DNA of 50,596 bases from Escherichia phage vB-EcoS-XT34: the sequence record OR767160; one strand, given 5' to 3'. Positions 19,657 to 45,883 of this stretch are shown piece after piece; within the stretch, counting starts at the first letter, position 1; every line of letters begins with the position of its first letter. A program made the position numbers and the translations under genes. The notes beneath the pieces are model-generated. The model saw only the letters and a list, made by a program, of their open reading frames with translations, had not been told where the DNA came from and made no database searches.

Positions 19657-22566
19657 ATGACAGATAAATTTGCAGGGCTATCGCTTGGGGTTGACATATC
19701 CCAGGTTGATGCGGCGGTTAAATCTCTGGATGACTTATCCAGGGCGAACAACACAGCCGGAAAGAGCTTTGACAATTTCATTGATGCTGAGCAAGTAGCA
19801 AAGCAGAAGATGAAAGAGTTCAACAACGAGGTTAAGCGCCAGAAGAAAGAATTTGCCGACGTAGAGAAAGCCATTGATCCTACAATCGGAAAAATGCGCC
19901 AGTTGCAGAAGGCGAGCGTTGACCTGGATAACCTCTGGAGTAAAGGCCTAGTTCCAGACGCCGAGTTCTTCAATCTGTCAAGCATGATTGAAACTCAGAT
20001 CAATGCGCTTAACCGATCCAAGATGGCGCTTACCGAAGAAGGCCGTGCGGCTATGGCTAACTCAAAAGCCAAAGAGGCGGCAACAAAGGACGCTGACAGG
20101 TTCCTTAAATCACTGCAAGAACAAGCTAACGCTGCGACAATGACCAAGACTGAGCTTCTCGAATTGAAGGCGGCACAGCTTGGCGTATCGACTCAGGCCG
20201 CACCTTTAATTGCAGCGATGAACAAGCAGACTGTAGCGACAAATGCGGCTGGCCTTTCCGCTGGCGAGTACAAGAACGCGCTGCGCATCTTGCCAATGCA
20301 GATCACTGACGTTGTTACCTCCCTTGCTTCCGGTATGCCTGTATGGCTGGTTGCAATCCAGCAGGGCGGGCAGATCAAGGATTCGTTCGGCGGTGTTGGG
20401 AATACGTTTAAAGTTTTGCTTTCTTACCTTAATCCGGTAACGGTTGGTATGGGCGCTATGGGTATCGCACTTGCTGGCCTTGCTAAAGCTGGTTACGACT
20501 CCTACCGATCCATCACTGACATGAAAAATGCCTTGATTGAGACTGGCGGATTTGCAGCAGCGAGTGCGGCAGACCTTGACCAGATCGCAATCAAGATTGC
20601 GGATACTGGTAACGCGACTATCGGAACCGTCCGCGACATCGCTACTGAGCTTGCTAAGAGTGGGAAATATACTCAGGAACAAATCAGGAATATCACCCGC
20701 GCTACCGCTGAATGGTCAGCCGCTACAGGCCGAGCATCAAGCGATATTATTAAGGATTTCGACAAGATTGCAGATGATCCGGTAAAAGGTCTGGCTAAAC
20801 TTAATGAGCAGTACAACTTCCTTGAGAAAGGTCAGTTAACCTACATTAACGGCATCATCAAAACGAAGGGCGAAACCGAAGCTGTGACAGCGGCGACTAA
20901 ACTGTTTGCCGACACCATGGAAGAACGAATGAGCAAGATTGCAGATACTGCAAGCCCACTTGAAAAGATGTGGACTGACATTAAGAAATGGTCATCCGAT
21001 GCCTGGGGTTGGGTTGGCGATCATACGCTTGGTGCTCTAAACCTCATCATTGACGTGGTTAGCGGCACGGTGATTCAGGTAAAAATGATTCTCGCTAAAG
21101 GTGACGAATACATTTCTAACTTTATCGCATCGGCAATCAAGGCAACGCAGAGCCTGCCAGGTATGAGCGATTTCGGTAAGGACATTCTCGCAGAGCAAGA
21201 ATCAATTGTTAAAAACTCAAAAGAAACATACGACGGATTAGCAAGGGATCTTGATTCAATCAATGCGCGGGTTGAAAAGGGCGAGATGGGATACGTTGAT
21301 GCACTTAAGACTCGGCGCGACCTGCAAAAGCAATACAGCAAAGAAACAAAAGATGCTGTAGAGAAGGAAGCGAAAGCCATTGAGGAACAGAACAGGAAGA
21401 AGGCAAAGAGCACGAAGGGGGACATCACAAAAGGTGCGACCGAGCAGCTTGATAAAGAACTGTATGTTCTCAAGGCACAGCTTAAAGTTTTGGAAGATCA
21501 TAAGTCGATTAACGACAAGATCTCAAGCCAGCGTCGGGCGCTGTGGGCGACTGAGGCTCAAATCTCAATCCTACAGGACGCGCAAAGCAAGCGTAAACTG
21601 ACCAACGAGGAAAGGGCATTGCTCGCCAGTCAGCAAAAGGTGCTTTCGTTAGCGAAGGAGAAAGCTGAGCTTGGCGATCAGATTGTTAAGCAGGAGCAGA
21701 TCAATAAACTGAATGACGACTCAATGAAGTTTATCATGCAGATTGACGCAGCGAGTAAAAGCCTTAACGCAACGCGCGCAATGGGTACTATTGAGGCAGA
21801 GCGACAGATTCAGCTTGAGAAGATCCGAGCGGAGTACATGGCGAAGGGAGGCGGTCAGGATGATGAGGCTCTCAAGGAAATGATTGACAAGCAGAACGAG
21901 TATTACGCCAACGAGGATGAGAAGCGTGGAGACTGGCTTGCTGGGGCGCAAAAAGCATTTTCTGACTACGGCGAAAGCGCAATGGATATGTACGGAAACG
22001 TAGAAAACATCGCAAGCAACGCCCTGAATGGTTTAACAGACATGATGACCGAGTTCTTGATGACGGGCCAGGCCAACTTTGCAGACTTTGCAAAAAGCAT
22101 TATCAGCCAGATCATTAAGATGATCACGCAGATGGTAATCTTTAACTCACTGTCAGGGATGGGCGTCGGCAGCGGTAAGGGGTTCTCCTTCGCTAATTCA
22201 GGTTGGTTCGCCACTGGCGGCTACACCGGAGATGGCGGTAAGTACGAGCCAGCAGGAACGGTTCATAAGGGTGAGTTTGTCATGACCAAGGAAGCTACCA
22301 AGAGAATTGGCGTCGATAACCTTTATCGAATGATGCGCGGTTATGCGAATGGCGGCGTGGTTGGTGGAACTTCAAGCGGTGGCGGCGGTAGTGCAATCAT
22401 GGCTGGCGGCGTGACAATCGGAAGTATCCCTGTTAGCATCAATAACGGTAGCGATCCGAAGGGCATGGAGCAGGGCGTGAAAATGATTTTCAAGCAAATG
22501 ATTCAGGAATCATGTTCCCAGGGTGGCGAAGTTTACAATTACATCAACGGAAAAGCAGGAGCGTAA
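19657..22566 (+). CDS. tail tape measure protein
   Basis: 969 aa, long predicted coiled-coil regions, Gly-rich C-terminal part, position after G/GT. Confidence 0.85.
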
Positions 22567-22616
22567 TAAATGGCCCTAGACGTGTTCAAGTGGTGCGTAC
22601 AGGTTCAGGATGGTGG

Positions 22617-22715
22617 NNNNNNNNNNNNNNNNNNNNNNNNNNNNNNNNNNNNNNNNNNNNNNNNNNNNNNNNNNNNNNNNNNNNNNNNNNNNNNNNNNNN
22701 NNNNNNNNNNNNNNN
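22617..22715. other. run of 99 N flanked by an exact 128-bp direct duplication (assembly join)
   Basis: 22489-22616 is identical to 22716-22843. Confidence 0.9.
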
Positions 22716-39174: not shown

Positions 39175-39653
39175 ATTGGAATGATGTTTTCGAGTACGTA
39201 GAAGGAAAGATTTTCTGGAAGGATAGTGGGAAAGGTAGGAAGTCTGGTGCTGAATTTGGTTGCATATGCAATACGTGGGGTTATGTTATTGGCACCCTTA
39301 GAGGAAGGACTGTTAGGGCCAATCGTTTAATATGGGAGATGCATAATGGGCCAATACCAAACGGAATGCAAATTGACCACATCAATCACATTAGGCATGA
39401 TAATAGAATTGAGAACTTGAGGCTTGTTAGTAATCAGGAAAACAGCAAAAACAACTCAATGCGAAAGAATAATACTTCTGGAGTTACAGGTGTTTGCTGG
39501 AATAAACAAAAAGGAAAGTGGATGGCTAAAATAAAAGTTGATTACAAAACCATAAATCTTGGTTTGTATTCAGACATTGAAAAGGCCGTGGAAGCAAGAA
39601 AGCAAGCTGAGGAATTATACGGTTTTCATGAAAATCACGGGGTTAATTTATGA
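39171..39653 (+). CDS. HNH homing endonuclease with AP2-like domain (copy 4)
   Basis: NRLIWEM..IDHINHIRHDNRIENLRLVS and EARKQAEELYGFHENHG. Confidence 0.75.
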   Translation: MNWNDVFEYVEGKIFWKDSGKGRKSGAEFGCICNTWGYVIGTLRGRTVRANRLIWEMHNGPIPNGMQIDHINHIRHDNRIENLRLVSNQENSKNNSMRKNNTSGVTGVCWNKQKGKWMAKIKVDYKTINLGLYSDIEKAVEARKQAEELYGFHENHGVNL

Positions 39654-40069
39654 AAATTACAGATAAAGTTGATTACATTGAGTTTTACCCGGGCCCGGTT
39701 AAGTCATGCCATAAAGAGGATGACGAACAAATCTTTTGCTCTGACTGGGTTAAGTACAACTACCCAGAGATGGTATTTTTCCACACCGTGAATGAGGGTA
39801 AGAAAACCATTGGACAAGCAAGAAAAGACCAGGCAAAGGGTTTGCTCAAGGGTGTGTCAGACTGTATTTTTTTGATACCTGAATCCGTGAGAGGGAGGCA
39901 TCCATTTGGCGCAATAGAGCTAAAGAGGGCTGGAAAAACACAAGCCAGTCCAGTCAGTGCCGAACAGAAGTCCTTCCTTAAAAGCGTAAGAGAATCAGGA
40001 GGTTTTGCGGCTGTGGCATACGGACGTGAAGGTTTTCTTGCGGCATTTAAAGAGATGATTTCAAAATAG
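39650..40069 (+). CDS. VRR-NUC domain nuclease
   Basis: 139 aa, PD-(D/E)XK-like core with D..ELK motif (DCIFLIP..GAIELKRAG). Confidence 0.6.
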   Translation: MKITDKVDYIEFYPGPVKSCHKEDDEQIFCSDWVKYNYPEMVFFHTVNEGKKTIGQARKDQAKGLLKGVSDCIFLIPESVRGRHPFGAIELKRAGKTQASPVSAEQKSFLKSVRESGGFAAVAYGREGFLAAFKEMISK

Positions 40070-40139: not shown

Positions 40140-40643
40140 ATGAAATGGAGAAATCGAATACAATATAAAGATGGTTCACTTTACTGGCTTGAGGCGAAAG
40201 ATAAAAGCAAATCATTCAATCATCGACTTTCTGGAAAGAAAATAGGAACGGTTATGAAGGATGGTTACATGAGATTCAGGTTTAATGATAAAGCATACTC
40301 ATGCAGCAGGGTGACGTGGGAGTACTTTAATGGAGAAATTCCTATCGGAATGGAGATTGATCATATAAACCATATAAGAGATGATAACAGAATTGAAAAT
40401 TTAAGATTGGTATCAAGATCTGATAATCAAAAAAATCTAAGTATATCAAAAAACAACAAATCAGGAGTAACTGGCGTCACATACCATAAACCTTCTGGTT
40501 TATGGTCCGCCAGAATAAACTCTGGAGGAAGAAGGTTTGAGCTTGGCTACTACAAAACCATAGAAGAAGCAAGGTTGGCAAGAATTGATGCTCAAAATGA
40601 ATTTGGTTTTCATGATAATCATGGAAAGAAAATAAAAAATTAA
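40140..40643 (+). CDS. HNH homing endonuclease with AP2-like domain (copy 5)
   Basis: SRVTWEY..IDHINHIRDDNRIENLRLVS and EARLARIDAQNEFGFHDNHG. Confidence 0.75.
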   Translation: MKWRNRIQYKDGSLYWLEAKDKSKSFNHRLSGKKIGTVMKDGYMRFRFNDKAYSCSRVTWEYFNGEIPIGMEIDHINHIRDDNRIENLRLVSRSDNQKNLSISKNNKSGVTGVTYHKPSGLWSARINSGGRRFELGYYKTIEEARLARIDAQNEFGFHDNHGKKIKN

Positions 40644-40658
40644 GCGAGGTTAAATAAG

Positions 40659-41387
40659 ATGATCGACTCAAACGACAAAGATACTCATGACGCATTCGTT
40701 AGCTTCGAGCAGATCGAGTGTGAAAACTTTGTTACCAATGCGCTTGTTCCTGGTAACGGTCATTATCAGTCGGTTAAGCCGGACACCTTCTATCAGGTAA
40801 CTGGGAAACGATACGCCGGAAGCAAGACGCCTGACGCAGTTCGTGACCTATGGGCCACTGACAGAGAAGTGATCTCATGGATGGAGTCGCGTTATGGGAA
40901 GTATGACATTGACGCCGCCGCCAGCGCTAACAATGCTATTTGCGAAAAGTTCTACAGCGAACAAGTGAACTGCCTCAAAATCTGGTGGGGTAGCAATAAG
41001 CACATCTGGATGAATCCTCCGTACTCACATCCAGATCCTTTCGTGAAGAAGGCGATTGAGCAGATGGAGCACGGGAACCAGATTGACATGCTCTTGCCTG
41101 GCGATAACTCGACGGCGTGGTTCGCTGAGGCACGACGCAATGCGGCTGAGATCATCTGGATTGAGGCAGAGATAACAGAAATTGACCAGCAGGAATACTG
41201 CCGAACCGGAAGGCTGGCATTCATATCAGGCCTGACCGGAAAGCCTGTAGATGGGAATAATAAGGGATCTGTCATCTTCATTATGAGAAAGCTGAAAGAA
41301 GGTGAGGCGCAGAAAACGACATACGTCTCAGTTAGTGATATTTGCCCTGGCGTTAGCCGTAAAAAACCACGTAAGCGGAGTGTTTAA
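40659..41387 (+). CDS. dam: DNA N6-adenine methyltransferase (phage Dam-type)
   Basis: 242 aa with catalytic NPPY motif (WMNPPYS). Confidence 0.7.
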   Translation: MIDSNDKDTHDAFVSFEQIECENFVTNALVPGNGHYQSVKPDTFYQVTGKRYAGSKTPDAVRDLWATDREVISWMESRYGKYDIDAAASANNAICEKFYSEQVNCLKIWWGSNKHIWMNPPYSHPDPFVKKAIEQMEHGNQIDMLLPGDNSTAWFAEARRNAAEIIWIEAEITEIDQQEYCRTGRLAFISGLTGKPVDGNNKGSVIFIMRKLKEGEAQKTTYVSVSDICPGVSRKKPRKRSV

Positions 41388-42403: not shown

Positions 42404-42557
42404 TGCGCTGCTTAATTCCAGTATTATTACCGCCGCTAATTGGTTTTATTATCATCTACCTACTAACACGATAAGGATTTACAAAAATGGCTATTCAGAA
42501 GATTAGTGACGAACAATTCATTGCTGAGCGCGAAGCTGGTAAAACACTCCGCCAGAT

Positions 42558-42656
42558 NNNNNNNNNNNNNNNNNNNNNNNNNNNNNNNNNNNNNNNNNNN
42601 NNNNNNNNNNNNNNNNNNNNNNNNNNNNNNNNNNNNNNNNNNNNNNNNNNNNNNNN
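42558..42656. other. run of 99 N flanked by an exact 128-bp direct duplication (assembly join)
   Basis: 42430-42557 is identical to 42657-42784. Confidence 0.9.
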
Positions 42657-42713
42657 CCGCCGCTAATTGGTTTTATTATCATCTACCTACTAACACGATA
42701 AGGATTTACAAAA

Positions 42714-43856
42714 ATGGCTATTCAGAAGATTAGTGACGAACAATTCATTGCTGAGCGCGAAGCTGGTAAAACACTCCGCCAGATTGCCCAGGAATACGGG
42801 ATGAACATTCGAACTGTTGAGCAGCGCTCAAGCCGCCTGGCAAAGCGCGGTGAGTTCCACGGGAATAAACACGTAAGCGTACACGTGCCAGAGGGCTTTC
42901 AGGTTAAAGGCACGTCAACCATGATTCGCGCTGACGGTTCCGAGGTCGTGCGCTGGGTTAAGACCGATCAGGACAAGGAGAAATTAGCCGCCATGATGGA
43001 TGCTGCTATTGAAGCATTCTGTGACGAACTCCCGCGCGCAGCTCCTCAGCCTATTCTTGGCGAGCCTCACTATGATGAGAATCTCCTGGCCCTGTATCCA
43101 GTTTTCGATCTCCACATCGGAGCAATGGCCCACAAGCATGAATGCGGCGAGAATTACAGCACCGACATCTCTGAGAAAGTTCTCAAGAACTTCTTTGATT
43201 ACTCGGTTGGTGTATCTCCTAAAGCAAAGAAAGCCGTATTGCTAATCGGCGGTGACTTCCTTCACTCAGACGGCCTGGACGCTGTAACGCCTGCAAGCGG
43301 TCACGTACTGGATCAGGATAGTCGATACGCCAAGCTAGTTCACGTTGCAATCCGTTCCGTACGCCGCGCGGTGGCGCTAATGCTGGATAAGCACGAAGAG
43401 GTCGAAATCCAGATCATTGAAGGTAACCATGACCAGGCTGGCATGATTTGGTTGCGTGCAGCAATGGCGGCATACTTTGAAGATGAGGCGCGCGTAACGG
43501 TTGATACGTCTCCTATGATTCTTCACCGTACAAAGTGGGGCAAAACATTGCTTGGATACACTCATGGTCACACCATGAAGAAAGCTGATACTCGACTGGC
43601 GGCAATGGCGACTGACTTCCGCGAAGAGTTCGGTACGAGCAAGTATATTTACACGCATAGTGGCCATTGGCACCATCAGACGATCACGGAAGGAACTTTG
43701 GGGATTGATGAGGTTCACGGTCAGCTTGGCGCGAAAGATGCATATGCGGCGCGCGGCGGTTGGCGCTCATATCGCCAGGCGGCGGTAATTGTCTACTCCA
43801 AGGAGTTCGGCGAAGTCGGTCGCTTCGTTTACCGTCCTGAAATGAGCGACATCTGA
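42714..43856 (+). CDS. HTH-containing calcineurin-like metallophosphoesterase
   Basis: N-terminal HTH-like LRQIAQEYGMNIRTVEQR; phosphoesterase motifs DLHIG, GGDFLHSD, GNHDQ; a duplicate start at 42487 lies in the pre-gap copy. Confidence 0.55.
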   Translation: MAIQKISDEQFIAEREAGKTLRQIAQEYGMNIRTVEQRSSRLAKRGEFHGNKHVSVHVPEGFQVKGTSTMIRADGSEVVRWVKTDQDKEKLAAMMDAAIEAFCDELPRAAPQPILGEPHYDENLLALYPVFDLHIGAMAHKHECGENYSTDISEKVLKNFFDYSVGVSPKAKKAVLLIGGDFLHSDGLDAVTPASGHVLDQDSRYAKLVHVAIRSVRRAVALMLDKHEEVEIQIIEGNHDQAGMIWLRAAMAAYFEDEARVTVDTSPMILHRTKWGKTLLGYTHGHTMKKADTRLAAMATDFREEFGTSKYIYTHSGHWHHQTITEGTLGIDEVHGQLGAKDAYAARGGWRSYRQAAVIVYSKEFGEVGRFVYRPEMSDI

Positions 43857-43900
43857 TAGCACGAATTGCCTAACACTATAGCGCCGGAAGGCGCTATATT
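43857..43900 (+). promoter_or_regulatory. box element variant (TAGCACGAATTGCCTAA) plus -10-like TATATT
   Basis: TGA-TAG double stop; spacing about 23 nt. Confidence 0.4.
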
Positions 43901-43927: not shown

Positions 43928-44101
43928 ATGGTTAAATTATTTTGCGTTAAGAACACATCTAAAACCCTGCCTTTCACTGTTAACAATCCGTACATCGCCG
44001 AGTACCAGGGAGACGGGAGCTACAAGATTTACGGCGACGATATGACGTGGATTTTTGCGCCAATTGATGGTGCTCTGGTTGAATTTATTATCGCTGACTA
44101 G
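43928..44101 (+). CDS. small hypothetical protein (57 aa)
   Basis: hand-translated ORF with AGAGGA RBS, followed by a terminator; not in the ORF track. Confidence 0.3.
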   Translation: MVKLFCVKNTSKTLPFTVNNPYIAEYQGDGSYKIYGDDMTWIFAPIDGALVEFIIAD

Positions 44102-44448: not shown

Positions 44449-44949
44449 ATGAAGCAGAAGCTTGTAATTAGTGCGGCGACGGCTGCAGCAATATACATTG
44501 CAGCACCGATCATTGAGCTTGTAGAAGGCGTGGAGAACAAGCCATACATGGACATTGCTGGAGTGCCTACGGTCTGCGCTGGAGTTACTGGCTCCGATGT
44601 GATATGGGGCAAGAGCTACAGTAACAGGGAGTGCCGGAACTTGCTGGAGAAGCACATTCAGATTCATGGCAAGCATGTGCAGAATGCAGTCACCTACCCT
44701 ATATCCCCAAAGACAAGGGCGGCGCTAATCAGTTTTAGCTACAACGTTGGCGGATACGCCATGAGGAAGTCTACATCTGTAAGGCTAATTAACCAGGGTA
44801 AGGTTGAGCAGGGTTGTAAGGCTCTAGGTATGTGGACAAAAGCAAGAGTAAATGGGAGGCTTGTTACAGTAAAGGGTTTAGTAAACCGAAGGAATGAAGA
44901 GATTAAGCTATGCATTGAGGGTGAGATGGAAATGAAAAGGGGCAATTAA
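44449..44949 (+). CDS. endolysin, lysozyme-like with N-terminal signal-anchor-release (SAR)-type domain
   Basis: 166 aa; weakly hydrophobic Ala/Gly-rich N-terminus followed by E..D..T catalytic spacing (IELVEGVENKPYMDIAGVPTVC). Confidence 0.7.
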   Translation: MKQKLVISAATAAAIYIAAPIIELVEGVENKPYMDIAGVPTVCAGVTGSDVIWGKSYSNRECRNLLEKHIQIHGKHVQNAVTYPISPKTRAALISFSYNVGGYAMRKSTSVRLINQGKVEQGCKALGMWTKARVNGRLVTVKGLVNRRNEEIKLCIEGEMEMKRGN

Positions 44950-45476
44950 GCCCCGTGATTTTCGTGAAAGCCTAGCTCCATCTCTGCGGCTTTTCTAGCT
45001 AAGACTGCATCATCGAATGAGTCTCCGTAGTAAAGCCGCTTATTCTTGCCATTAATTTTTATCTGAGAGAACCATTTACCCCTTGCTGAGTCCCAGCACA
45101 CACCAACGACTCCGGATGTATTTAAAGAAGACATTGGCATGTTCATTTCCTGATCAGACCTTGATGCCAGTCTTAGGTTTTCAATTCTATTATCATCCTT
45201 AATGTGGTTTATATGATCGATCTCTATACCATCAGGTATCTGGCCTTTGTGCATTTCCCATATAATCCTATGCACCTTCCTGTACCTGTTGTTAAATCTA
45301 ACCAATAGGTATCCATGTTTATCTGGAGTTCCAACCATTTTTCCGGCATTTCTTGAGTTGTACTGATTGCTCATGTCATCACGACGCTTCCTCCATAAAT
45401 TATTTCCGTCATAATGAAAGTATTTTGACCAGTTCATGTATACTATCCTCTCTAGTTTCATTTCATCAACAATCAT
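44946..45476 (-). CDS. HNH homing endonuclease with AP2-like domain (copy 6)
   Basis: HRIIWEM..IDHINHIKDDNRIENLRLAS and FDDAVLARKAAEMELGFHENHG; on the opposite strand, between endolysin and spanin genes. Confidence 0.75.
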   Translation of the reverse strand: MIVDEMKLERIVYMNWSKYFHYDGNNLWRKRRDDMSNQYNSRNAGKMVGTPDKHGYLLVRFNNRYRKVHRIIWEMHKGQIPDGIEIDHINHIKDDNRIENLRLASRSDQEMNMPMSSLNTSGVVGVCWDSARGKWFSQIKINGKNKRLYYGDSFDDAVLARKAAEMELGFHENHGA

Positions 45477-45493: not shown

Positions 45494-45883
45494 ATGTTTT
45501 TGCAAAAAATGCTATTATGCTCTGTAATTCTGCTTTCAGGTTGTTCGGCGACATCTGCGCTGACTGGTTTAATTGGCAGCAAGCCAGAAATCAGTGCGCA
45601 GGCTGGGGCTGAGAACGTGAAGCAAACGGTAGGTGTTACAGGAAAGGTGGATAAGTCAAACGACAACGACACCACTATCAAAGATTCAAAGGTAGGAAAG
45701 GTTGATACGTCAAACGGGAAATCTGTCAGCACATCAAGCATCAAGGCTGACACTATCGTTGCTGATAAGATTGAAATAAGGAATGATGAAGGAGGTGGAA
45801 GGATTGCGTTTGGACTTGCTTTAATTCTAATTAGCCTATTGCTTTTCTCATTTACAATATGGACTACTTTTCGCAAAAAATAA
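45494..45883 (+). CDS. unimolecular spanin (u-spanin) candidate
   Basis: N-terminal lipoprotein signal with lipobox LLSGC-S and a single C-terminal transmembrane helix, as in the phage T1 u-spanin. Confidence 0.55.
   Translation: MFLQKMLLCSVILLSGCSATSALTGLIGSKPEISAQAGAENVKQTVGVTGKVDKSNDNDTTIKDSKVGKVDTSNGKSVSTSSIKADTIVADKIEIRNDEGGGRIAFGLALILISLLLFSFTIWTTFRKK

Follow-up and report, generated by a model that had tools for sequence, protein, structure and literature searches.

The open reading frame (ORF) at positions 42714-43856 of Escherichia phage vB-EcoS-XT34 (hereafter XT34; sequence record OR767160) raises the question of what a phosphoesterase joined to a DNA-binding domain does in a phage. 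The window, meaning the whole stretch of DNA that was analysed, is 50,596 nucleotides long. An earlier note, made from its letters alone, had described the ORF as a fusion of a helix-turn-helix (HTH) domain to a calcineurin-like metallophosphoesterase (MPE), and the motifs, the family alignment and an AlphaFold2 model all agree with that description. We conclude that the protein is an HTH domain joined to an intact two-metal phosphoesterase of the calcineurin-like superfamily, and that its most likely activity, which we hold with somewhat better than even confidence, is that of a DNA nuclease. Conservation was scored in an alignment of 40 homologs that are 31-68% identical to the query. The ORF and its parts are:

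42714..43856, + strand: gp16-type ORF, complete, 380 amino acids plus stop; ortholog of coliphage T1 gp16 (ST16); PHROG 704
42714..42863, + strand: N-terminal HTH domain, amino acids 1-50
42882..43028, + strand: β-hairpin plus helix module, amino acids 57-105; consensus VKGxSTxYxxxGxxxxxWVK; no family assignment
43074..43853, + strand: MPE domain, amino acids 121-380
43104..43121, + strand: MPE motif I, FDLHIG (D132, H134); D and H invariant in 40 of 40 homologs
43248..43271, + strand: MPE motif II, GGDFLHSD (D181, H184); invariant in 40 of 40
43287..43325, + strand: family-specific insert TPASGHVLDQDSR, amino acids 192-204, between motifs II and III
43422..43436, + strand: MPE motif III, GNHDQ (N238, H239); invariant in 40 of 40
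43560..43571, + strand: MPE motif IV, THGH; H284 invariant, H286 His in 34 and Asp in 6 of 40
43659..43676, + strand: MPE motif V, SGHWHH; H318 His in 37 and Asp in 3 of 40, H320 invariant

All five ordered motifs of the MPE superfamily (DxH, GDxxD/H, GNH(D/E), H and GHxH) are present in the query. Three of them, DLHIG (residue 132), GGDFLHSD (residue 179) and GNHDQ (residue 237), had been picked out before, and they do follow one another in the order claimed; THGH (residue 283) and SGHWHH (residue 316) had gone unlisted. The metal-binding residues have not been lost but are invariant or nearly so across the homologs, with D132, H134, D181, H184, N238, H239, H284 and H320 identical in every one. 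Within the family-specific insert T192 is invariant and D200 and R204 are nearly so, and TPASGHVLDQDSR is probably a substrate-binding loop. All 40 homologs retain the three parts of the protein, that is, an N-terminal region of at least 48 amino acids, a middle module of 58-68 amino acids, in which G75 and W81 are nearly invariant, and an MPE domain of 255-276 amino acids.

A Pfam search with the query alone did not match Metallophos and returned only a sub-threshold HTH_23 match (E 0.02) and a weak sigma70_r4 match. Among the 40 relatives, nine matched PF00149, with only P0150 passing the gathering cut-off (25.1 versus 21.5 bits), and five matched PF12850. We accept the MPE assignment despite the blank query result because of this family-level evidence. 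Consistent with it, the AlphaFold2 model built from the family alignment (pLDDT 89.2, pTM 0.80) has the MPE fold: helices at residues 8-16, 21-27 and 32-44 are followed by a β-hairpin (62-86), a helix (88-105) and an MPE sandwich that begins at about residue 121. The N-terminal segment that had been called HTH-like, LRQIAQEYGMNIRTVEQR, starts at residue 21, and its assignment is backed both by this model and by HTH-family matches in relatives. The N-termini of many relatives match assorted HTH families, with E values down to about 5e-6 and most scores below Pfam cut-offs; the family profile gives GerE and HTH-repeat matches in the same region, and one family member has two HTHs. Separately, a metagenomic member of 538 amino acids, P0242, matches nothing in Pfam and has a 213-amino-acid N-terminal extension that opens with a ParB-type-looking sequence (…DPKFIALVESIRREGCRDPIVVWVEEGIVVDGH…). 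If that ParB-type reading holds, a single type of MPE core has received different DNA-binding modules by swapping.

An HTH that resembles σ70 region 4, LuxR and Fis domains, with sigma70_r4, GerE and HTH_8 matches in the query or its relatives, could also belong to a protein that is primarily a transcription factor. Its HTH would control late or lysis genes, with the MPE domain there for sensing or oligomerisation, and this would suit a gene that in Drexlerviridae immediately precedes the lysis cassette and in Dhillonvirus lies just 5′ of the terminase genes. We regard this as the least probable of the readings considered. The catalytic residues are invariant or nearly so, which implies selection for catalysis, whereas the N-terminal sequence is poorly conserved across the family although the region itself is retained, and a Campylobacter-phage relative of 318 amino acids does without the N-terminal domain. 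Moreover, the T1 holin and dam promoters are already explained by the phage regulator Pir. T1 gp16 lies downstream of the dam promoter, which Pir activates (PMC6737242); gp16 is not itself Pir, which is Orf23.

By position and sequence, the ORF is the ortholog of T1 gp16 (ST16, YP_003929), and the gene is already known and catalogued as an ordinary core gene of T1-like phages. At the DNA level the region shares 92-93% identity with Escherichia phages P817, CJ19 and PH1062; of these, PH1062 is classified in the genus Nouzillyvirus of the Drexlerviridae. The protein is 99.2% identical to one from phage vB_EcoM_50EP and roughly 60-77% identical to orthologs from tunaviruses and other Drexlerviridae genera. 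It matches the PHROG 704 profile, ‘DNA repair exonuclease’, over its full length (phrog_704, E 1.1e-152, residues 4-378 on profile positions 2-389 of 390). T1 gp16, PHROG 704 and gp66 of phage TLS share its length, domain order and position, and we find no difference of substance among them. Database labels for such proteins range from hypothetical and metallophosphoesterase to sigma70_r4_2 domain-containing protein and HTH-type regulator/nuclease SbcD, and GenBank labels for the gp16-type gene include phosphoesterase and exonuclease. Annotators of phage TLS independently named gp66 a ‘proof-reading exonuclease’ on the strength of an HHpred match to PolD (6KNB). In the literature on function (phosphoesterase activity, anti-defence, host DNA degradation, essentiality) we found annotation-level mentions only, and no experimental characterisation of any family member.

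Which kind of MPE is it? Comparison of folds gave the following scores:

PolD DP1 3′-5′ exonuclease: 16.2 (209 residues aligned)
Mre11: 14.5
SbcD: 14.4
MJ0936: 13.8
LpxH: 13.4
Rv0805: 12.3
GpdQ: 12.0
PPP Ser/Thr phosphatases: about 8-9

The earlier note had suggested comparison with Mre11/SbcD and with NinI-type phosphatases. The nearest folds are indeed those of DP1, Mre11 and SbcD, but the protein proves to be a member of neither the Mre11/SbcD group nor the NinI type. Mre11 and SbcD have a C-terminal capping domain, whereas in the query model nothing follows the MPE core, which runs to residue 380, and an HTH stands at the N-terminus instead; NCBIfam models for SbcD or Mre11 did not match. 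No gene for a Rad50/SbcC ATPase lies near gp16 here, in T1 or PH1062, or at the Jerseyvirus, Dhillonvirus, Vibrio, Campylobacter and Roseobacter phage loci. For want of a capping domain, of a Rad50/SbcC partner at these loci and of a significant sequence match, we reject Mre11/SbcD membership. A NinI or lambda-type PPP Ser/Thr phosphatase is rejected on its motifs (GDxVDRG, GNHE) and on fold matching to PP1 and lambda PPase. DP1 (PDB 5IHE, 6KNB) is the best structural neighbour, at a sequence identity of only 12%. It works inside the DP1-DP2 polymerase and has an OB-fold but no HTH, whereas the query carries an HTH and a hairpin N-terminal to its MPE domain. The annotations of T1 and PH1062 list no DNA polymerase, DP2 included, and the examined part of the XT34 window showed none either; with no DP2 partner and no OB-fold, membership of the DP1 family is also rejected.

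Sequence comparison with known structures was less telling. The query alone matched nothing among PDB sequences, Foldseek against the PDB gave generic MPE matches only, with low TM-scores, and the family profile gave faint HTH and MPE matches, among them ‘Nuclease MPE’, SbcD and Mre11 at E 0.4-0.9. The only curated NCBIfam MPE model that was matched repeatedly is PdeM (TIGR04123), by 11 of the 40 members (E ≤0.05, best E 2e-5). PdeM is a DNA endonuclease according to its NCBIfam and PDB names (‘ligase-associated DNA damage response endonuclease’, ‘MPE nuclease’); its motif II (LGDFLH) is identical to that of the query family and its GNHD spacing is similar. However, it is a protein of about 210 amino acids (PDB 6NVO) that has no HTH and lies beside an Lhr helicase and a ligase in bacteria, an arrangement of which only a ligase neighbour recurs among the relatives, and only in phage CP39. 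Given an equivalog cut-off of 150 bits, a query score of 18.3 bits and scores far below the cut-off for all 11 matching relatives, and with no Lhr-type helicase and ATP-dependent ligase neighbourhood in the window, we reject PdeM membership. Work from the Shuman laboratory reportedly describes PdeM as a Mn-dependent, stand-alone enzyme that acts on single-stranded DNA. We conclude that the domain represents a distinct MPE subfamily, one with no solved close relative, that leans to the nuclease branch.

The family is large and belongs to phages. A profile search of 1.84 billion representatives recovered 5389 clusters (at 50% identity) with E ≤1e-3 and 1371 with E ≤1e-30, most of them proteins of 370-420 amino acids with near full-length matches. 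By tblastn, relatives occur in 2056 of 50,697 phage records (about 4%), including Drexlerviridae, Dhillonvirus, Guernseyvirinae (Jerseyvirus, Kagunavirus), the Vibrio Ackermannviridae-like phage VAP7, Campylobacter Fletchervirus, an N4-like roseophage, and Flavobacterium and Rhodobacter phages. A scan of 185,579 species genomes of bacteria and archaea turned up essentially no close relatives: its single locus sits on a phage-like contig in a metagenome-assembled genome, so that bacterial genomes do not carry close relatives as residents. Within the Drexlerviridae the gp16 module is reported in 508 of 522 phages (PMC13164509). In XT34, PH1062 and T1 a helicase gene, a VRR-NUC-like gene, a Dam methylase gene and several small ORFs precede gp16, and a small ORF, holin, endolysin and spanin follow it.

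DNA or nucleotide-metabolism genes are neighbours in five of the seven lineages inspected: in XT34 and T1 Dam, VRR-NUC and helicase, in Webervirus a polynucleotide kinase (PNK)-type phosphatase and a deoxynucleoside monophosphate (dNMP) kinase, in phage CP39 a ligase, in phage R7L thymidylate synthase and dCMP deaminase, and in VAP7 primase and topoisomerase. Structural or packaging genes are neighbours in the other two, Dhillonvirus, where the gene lies between lysis and terminase genes, and Jerseyvirus, where it forms an island among tail genes. A distant homolog in Campylobacter phage CP39 (L010, 2654-4951), the 318-amino-acid protein without an HTH, is encoded directly 3′ of an ATP-dependent DNA ligase, an arrangement that recalls the ligase-associated PdeM of bacteria.

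In many Drexlerviridae a PNK-type phosphatase and P-loop kinase lie directly 3′ of gp16, which brings in an alternative: an end-healing phosphoesterase, that is, a 2′,3′-cyclic phosphodiesterase and/or 3′-phosphatase like the MPE domain of bacterial Pnkp. In Clostridium thermocellum Pnkp the MPE domain performs end healing. Such an enzyme would join the phage polynucleotide kinase/phosphatase in repairing tRNA or DNA that defence nucleases of the host have cleaved. We think this improbable. In XT34 and T1 the PNK gene is distant from gp16, and conservation of the HTH speaks for duplex DNA, not tRNA, as the target. RNA ligase is not annotated in T1 or PH1062, and the fold neighbours are nucleases rather than lambda-phosphatase-like enzymes.

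The same fold comparison bears on a small-molecule phosphodiesterase, which might hydrolyse cyclic AMP (cAMP), relieving cAMP-CRP repression of T1 promoters, or the cyclic (oligo)nucleotide signals of CBASS, Pycsar or type III CRISPR systems. This option is less probable again. The best fold matches are nucleases, and the conserved DNA-binding domain is not obviously needed for a diffusible ligand. The gene is also syntenic and near-universal (508/522), unlike the typical anti-defence gene, which is accessory and variable; no PADLOC family matched at E values up to 1, and our literature searches brought up no anti-defence enzyme of the MPE type that has an HTH. Thus, of the roles offered by the earlier note, a nuclease is favoured by the fold neighbours, and an anti-defence role finds no support and is disfavoured because the gene belongs to the syntenic, near-universal core of the family, has no PADLOC match and encodes a DNA-binding domain that a diffusible ligand would not require. 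A variant that keeps the HTH in use, a phosphodiesterase rather than a nuclease that is tethered to DNA and destroys either cyclic-oligonucleotide immune signals or cAMP, lifting cAMP-CRP repression of the T1 Pir, dam and recE promoters, strikes us as slightly more remote still. If true, such a second-messenger phosphodiesterase would make a near-universal core gene of the T1 family a host-signal eraser.

Our best overall explanation, which we hold tentatively and with rather less than even confidence, is an HTH-tethered two-metal DNA nuclease whose preferred role is breakdown of the host chromosome for nucleotide salvage. We infer DNA as the substrate, along with polarity and metal identity. 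The HTH, duplicated or extended in some relatives, would hold the enzyme on DNA, where the MPE domain would hydrolyse phosphodiester bonds by the standard two-metal mechanism. Metal 1 would be bound by D132, H134 and D181, metal 2 by D181, N238, H284 and H318/H320, and H239 would stabilise the transition state. By analogy with the best structural neighbour, the activity is probably that of a 3′-5′ exonuclease and/or a single-strand endonuclease, and the enzyme would act alone, independently of a Rad50/SbcC-type ATPase. Its gene closes an operon of helicase, VRR-NUC and Dam genes, and the nucleotides released from the broken-down chromosome would feed salvage. T1 and TLS degrade the host genome and reuse its nucleotides, and according to a 2024 re-annotation of TLS the gene products responsible had not yet been pinned down (PMC11447400). 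In several lineages the gp16-type gene lies beside dNMP kinase or thymidylate-synthesis genes. The case for a role of gp16 in host-DNA degradation is circumstantial: that the protein is the host-DNA degradation enzyme is possible but doubtful, and we are just as hesitant to equate gp16 with the T1 host-chromosome-degrading enzyme, the classical ‘gene 2.5’ function.

Two caveats apply. First, the margin of the nuclease branch over small-molecule phosphodiesterases in the fold comparison is modest. Second, gp38 of Pantoea phage AAS23, a homolog of the phosphoesterase, was detected by liquid chromatography-tandem mass spectrometry in purified virion preparations (PMC8004638), which fits none of the models considered; packaging into the virion and contamination are both possible.

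A nuclease could instead be directed at phage DNA. A stand-alone Mre11/DP1-like enzyme might process the ends, flaps or stalled intermediates that arise in recombination-dependent replication and as concatemers form, acting with the RecE-like exonuclease, Erf, SSB and the VRR-NUC resolvase; this idea underlies the labels ‘DNA repair exonuclease’ and ‘proof-reading exonuclease’. It draws on the same structural and sequence support for a nuclease-type MPE, on the place of gp16 in the replication/recombination half of the genome and of its relatives beside the ligase in CP39 and the primase and topoisomerase in VAP7, and on the weak PdeM similarity, which recalls ligase-associated repair clusters. 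We nevertheless consider it unlikely, though well ahead of end healing. The inspected lineages have no Rad50/SbcC-like ATPase nearby and the protein has no capping domain, PolD-style proofreading would be left without a partner in T1 and PH1062, where no DNA polymerase is annotated, and both phages already carry a RecE/Erf recombination system.

The preferred role, host-chromosome breakdown, has a parallel in phage T5, whose A1 protein is annotated in the T5 record as involved in host DNA degradation. The five MPE motifs recur in the C-terminal half of A1 (L009, 1706-3376, − strand), in the order seen in gp16 (DIH ... HDxxDF (HDVHDF) ... SNHD-x3-S-x-WL ... HGH ... GHTH ... ITY). Alignment of the gp16-family and A1 MPE domains with hhalign gave probabilities of 58-74% (E 3e-5 at 74%), with only 22-23 confident columns, which lie around motif III; the motifs came into register, over 211 columns, only under relaxed settings. 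Neither tblastn nor phmmer gave cross-matches between A1 and the gp16 family. A1, at 556 amino acids, differs in having an N-terminal half that is unrelated to gp16 and in which no HTH was detected, and it is a pre-early protein required for host DNA degradation and second-step transfer, whereas gp16 is a middle gene. Comparison by BLASTP and hhalign did not demonstrate homology beyond superfamily level. We treat A1 and gp16 as separate families of one superfamily, and the parallel as a lead. The A1 family itself has relatives in 1133 phage records, including Vibrio, Caulobacter and Flavobacterium phages.

Reading of the XT34 gene is complicated by the assembly just 5′ of it. The features flanking the ORF are:

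42558..42656, no strand: scaffold gap of 99 N, an assembly artefact just 5′ of the ORF
42700..42704, + strand: Shine-Dalgarno sequence AAGGA, 9 nt 5′ of the ATG, read from sequence
43877..43898, + strand: hairpin with a 9-bp GC-rich stem and GGAA loop, 21 nt past the stop codon

An identical 128 bp stands on both sides of the gap (42430-42557 and 42657-42784) and holds the ORF leader and the first 71 nt of the gene. When one copy and the Ns were collapsed, the sequence aligned to phage PH1062 over 1374 nt without gaps, at 92.2% identity, and we therefore attribute the duplication to the assembly join rather than to biology. The partial copy of the ORF at 42487-42557 is accordingly rejected as a biological feature. 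The same 128-bp signature marks a second run of 99 N at 22617-22715, after which 22489-22616 recurs. We conclude that both runs are scaffold joins of overlapping contig ends, and that the gene 5′-end copy at 42487-42557 is spurious.

At the other end of the ORF, the hairpin at 43877-43898 has a folding energy of −15.3 kcal/mol (z −3.6), and T1 carries an annotated rho-independent terminator at the matching place after gp16. The hairpin was not picked up by a scan for consensus promoters and terminators, in which sites were no more numerous than in shuffled sequence. Because its U-tract is weak, we regard it as probably a partial terminator or an RNA-stabilising hairpin.

What lies directly 3′ of the gene differs among phages: a 57-amino-acid SH3-like ORF in XT34, an HNH gene (ST15) in T1, and PNK and dNMP kinase genes in Webervirus. 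The XT34 ORF (43928-44101, + strand), between the phosphoesterase and holin genes, matches phrog_4788 (E 3e-33), and its location is that of the standalone SH3 domain (DUF7244), which was recently described as part of the Drexlerviridae lysis module and occurs in 188 of 522 phages (PMC13164509). Further along, a 176-amino-acid HNH endonuclease gene (44946-45476, − strand) separates the endolysin gene (44449-44949) from the spanin gene (45494-45883). It looks like a homing-endonuclease insertion in the lysis cassette, since endolysin and spanin are contiguous in PH1062, with no HNH gene between them. It is 45% identical to a second HNH endonuclease gene (40140-40643, + strand; phrog_99, E 5e-58), which is flanked by the VRR-NUC-like ORF (39650-40069) and the Dam methylase gene (40659-41387), at a place where PH1062 has a hypothetical ORF of 273 nt.

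As a sequence feature, then, the gp16-type gene is ordinary; its value is as a cheap, testable link between a very common phage gene and the degradation of host DNA by T1. Destruction of the host chromosome limits generalised transduction by T1 and TLS. If true, the proposed role would give a function to a gene that ranks among the commonest unexplained ones in virulent siphophages, and it could aid the engineering of T1-like phages, for example by altering how readily host DNA is transduced.
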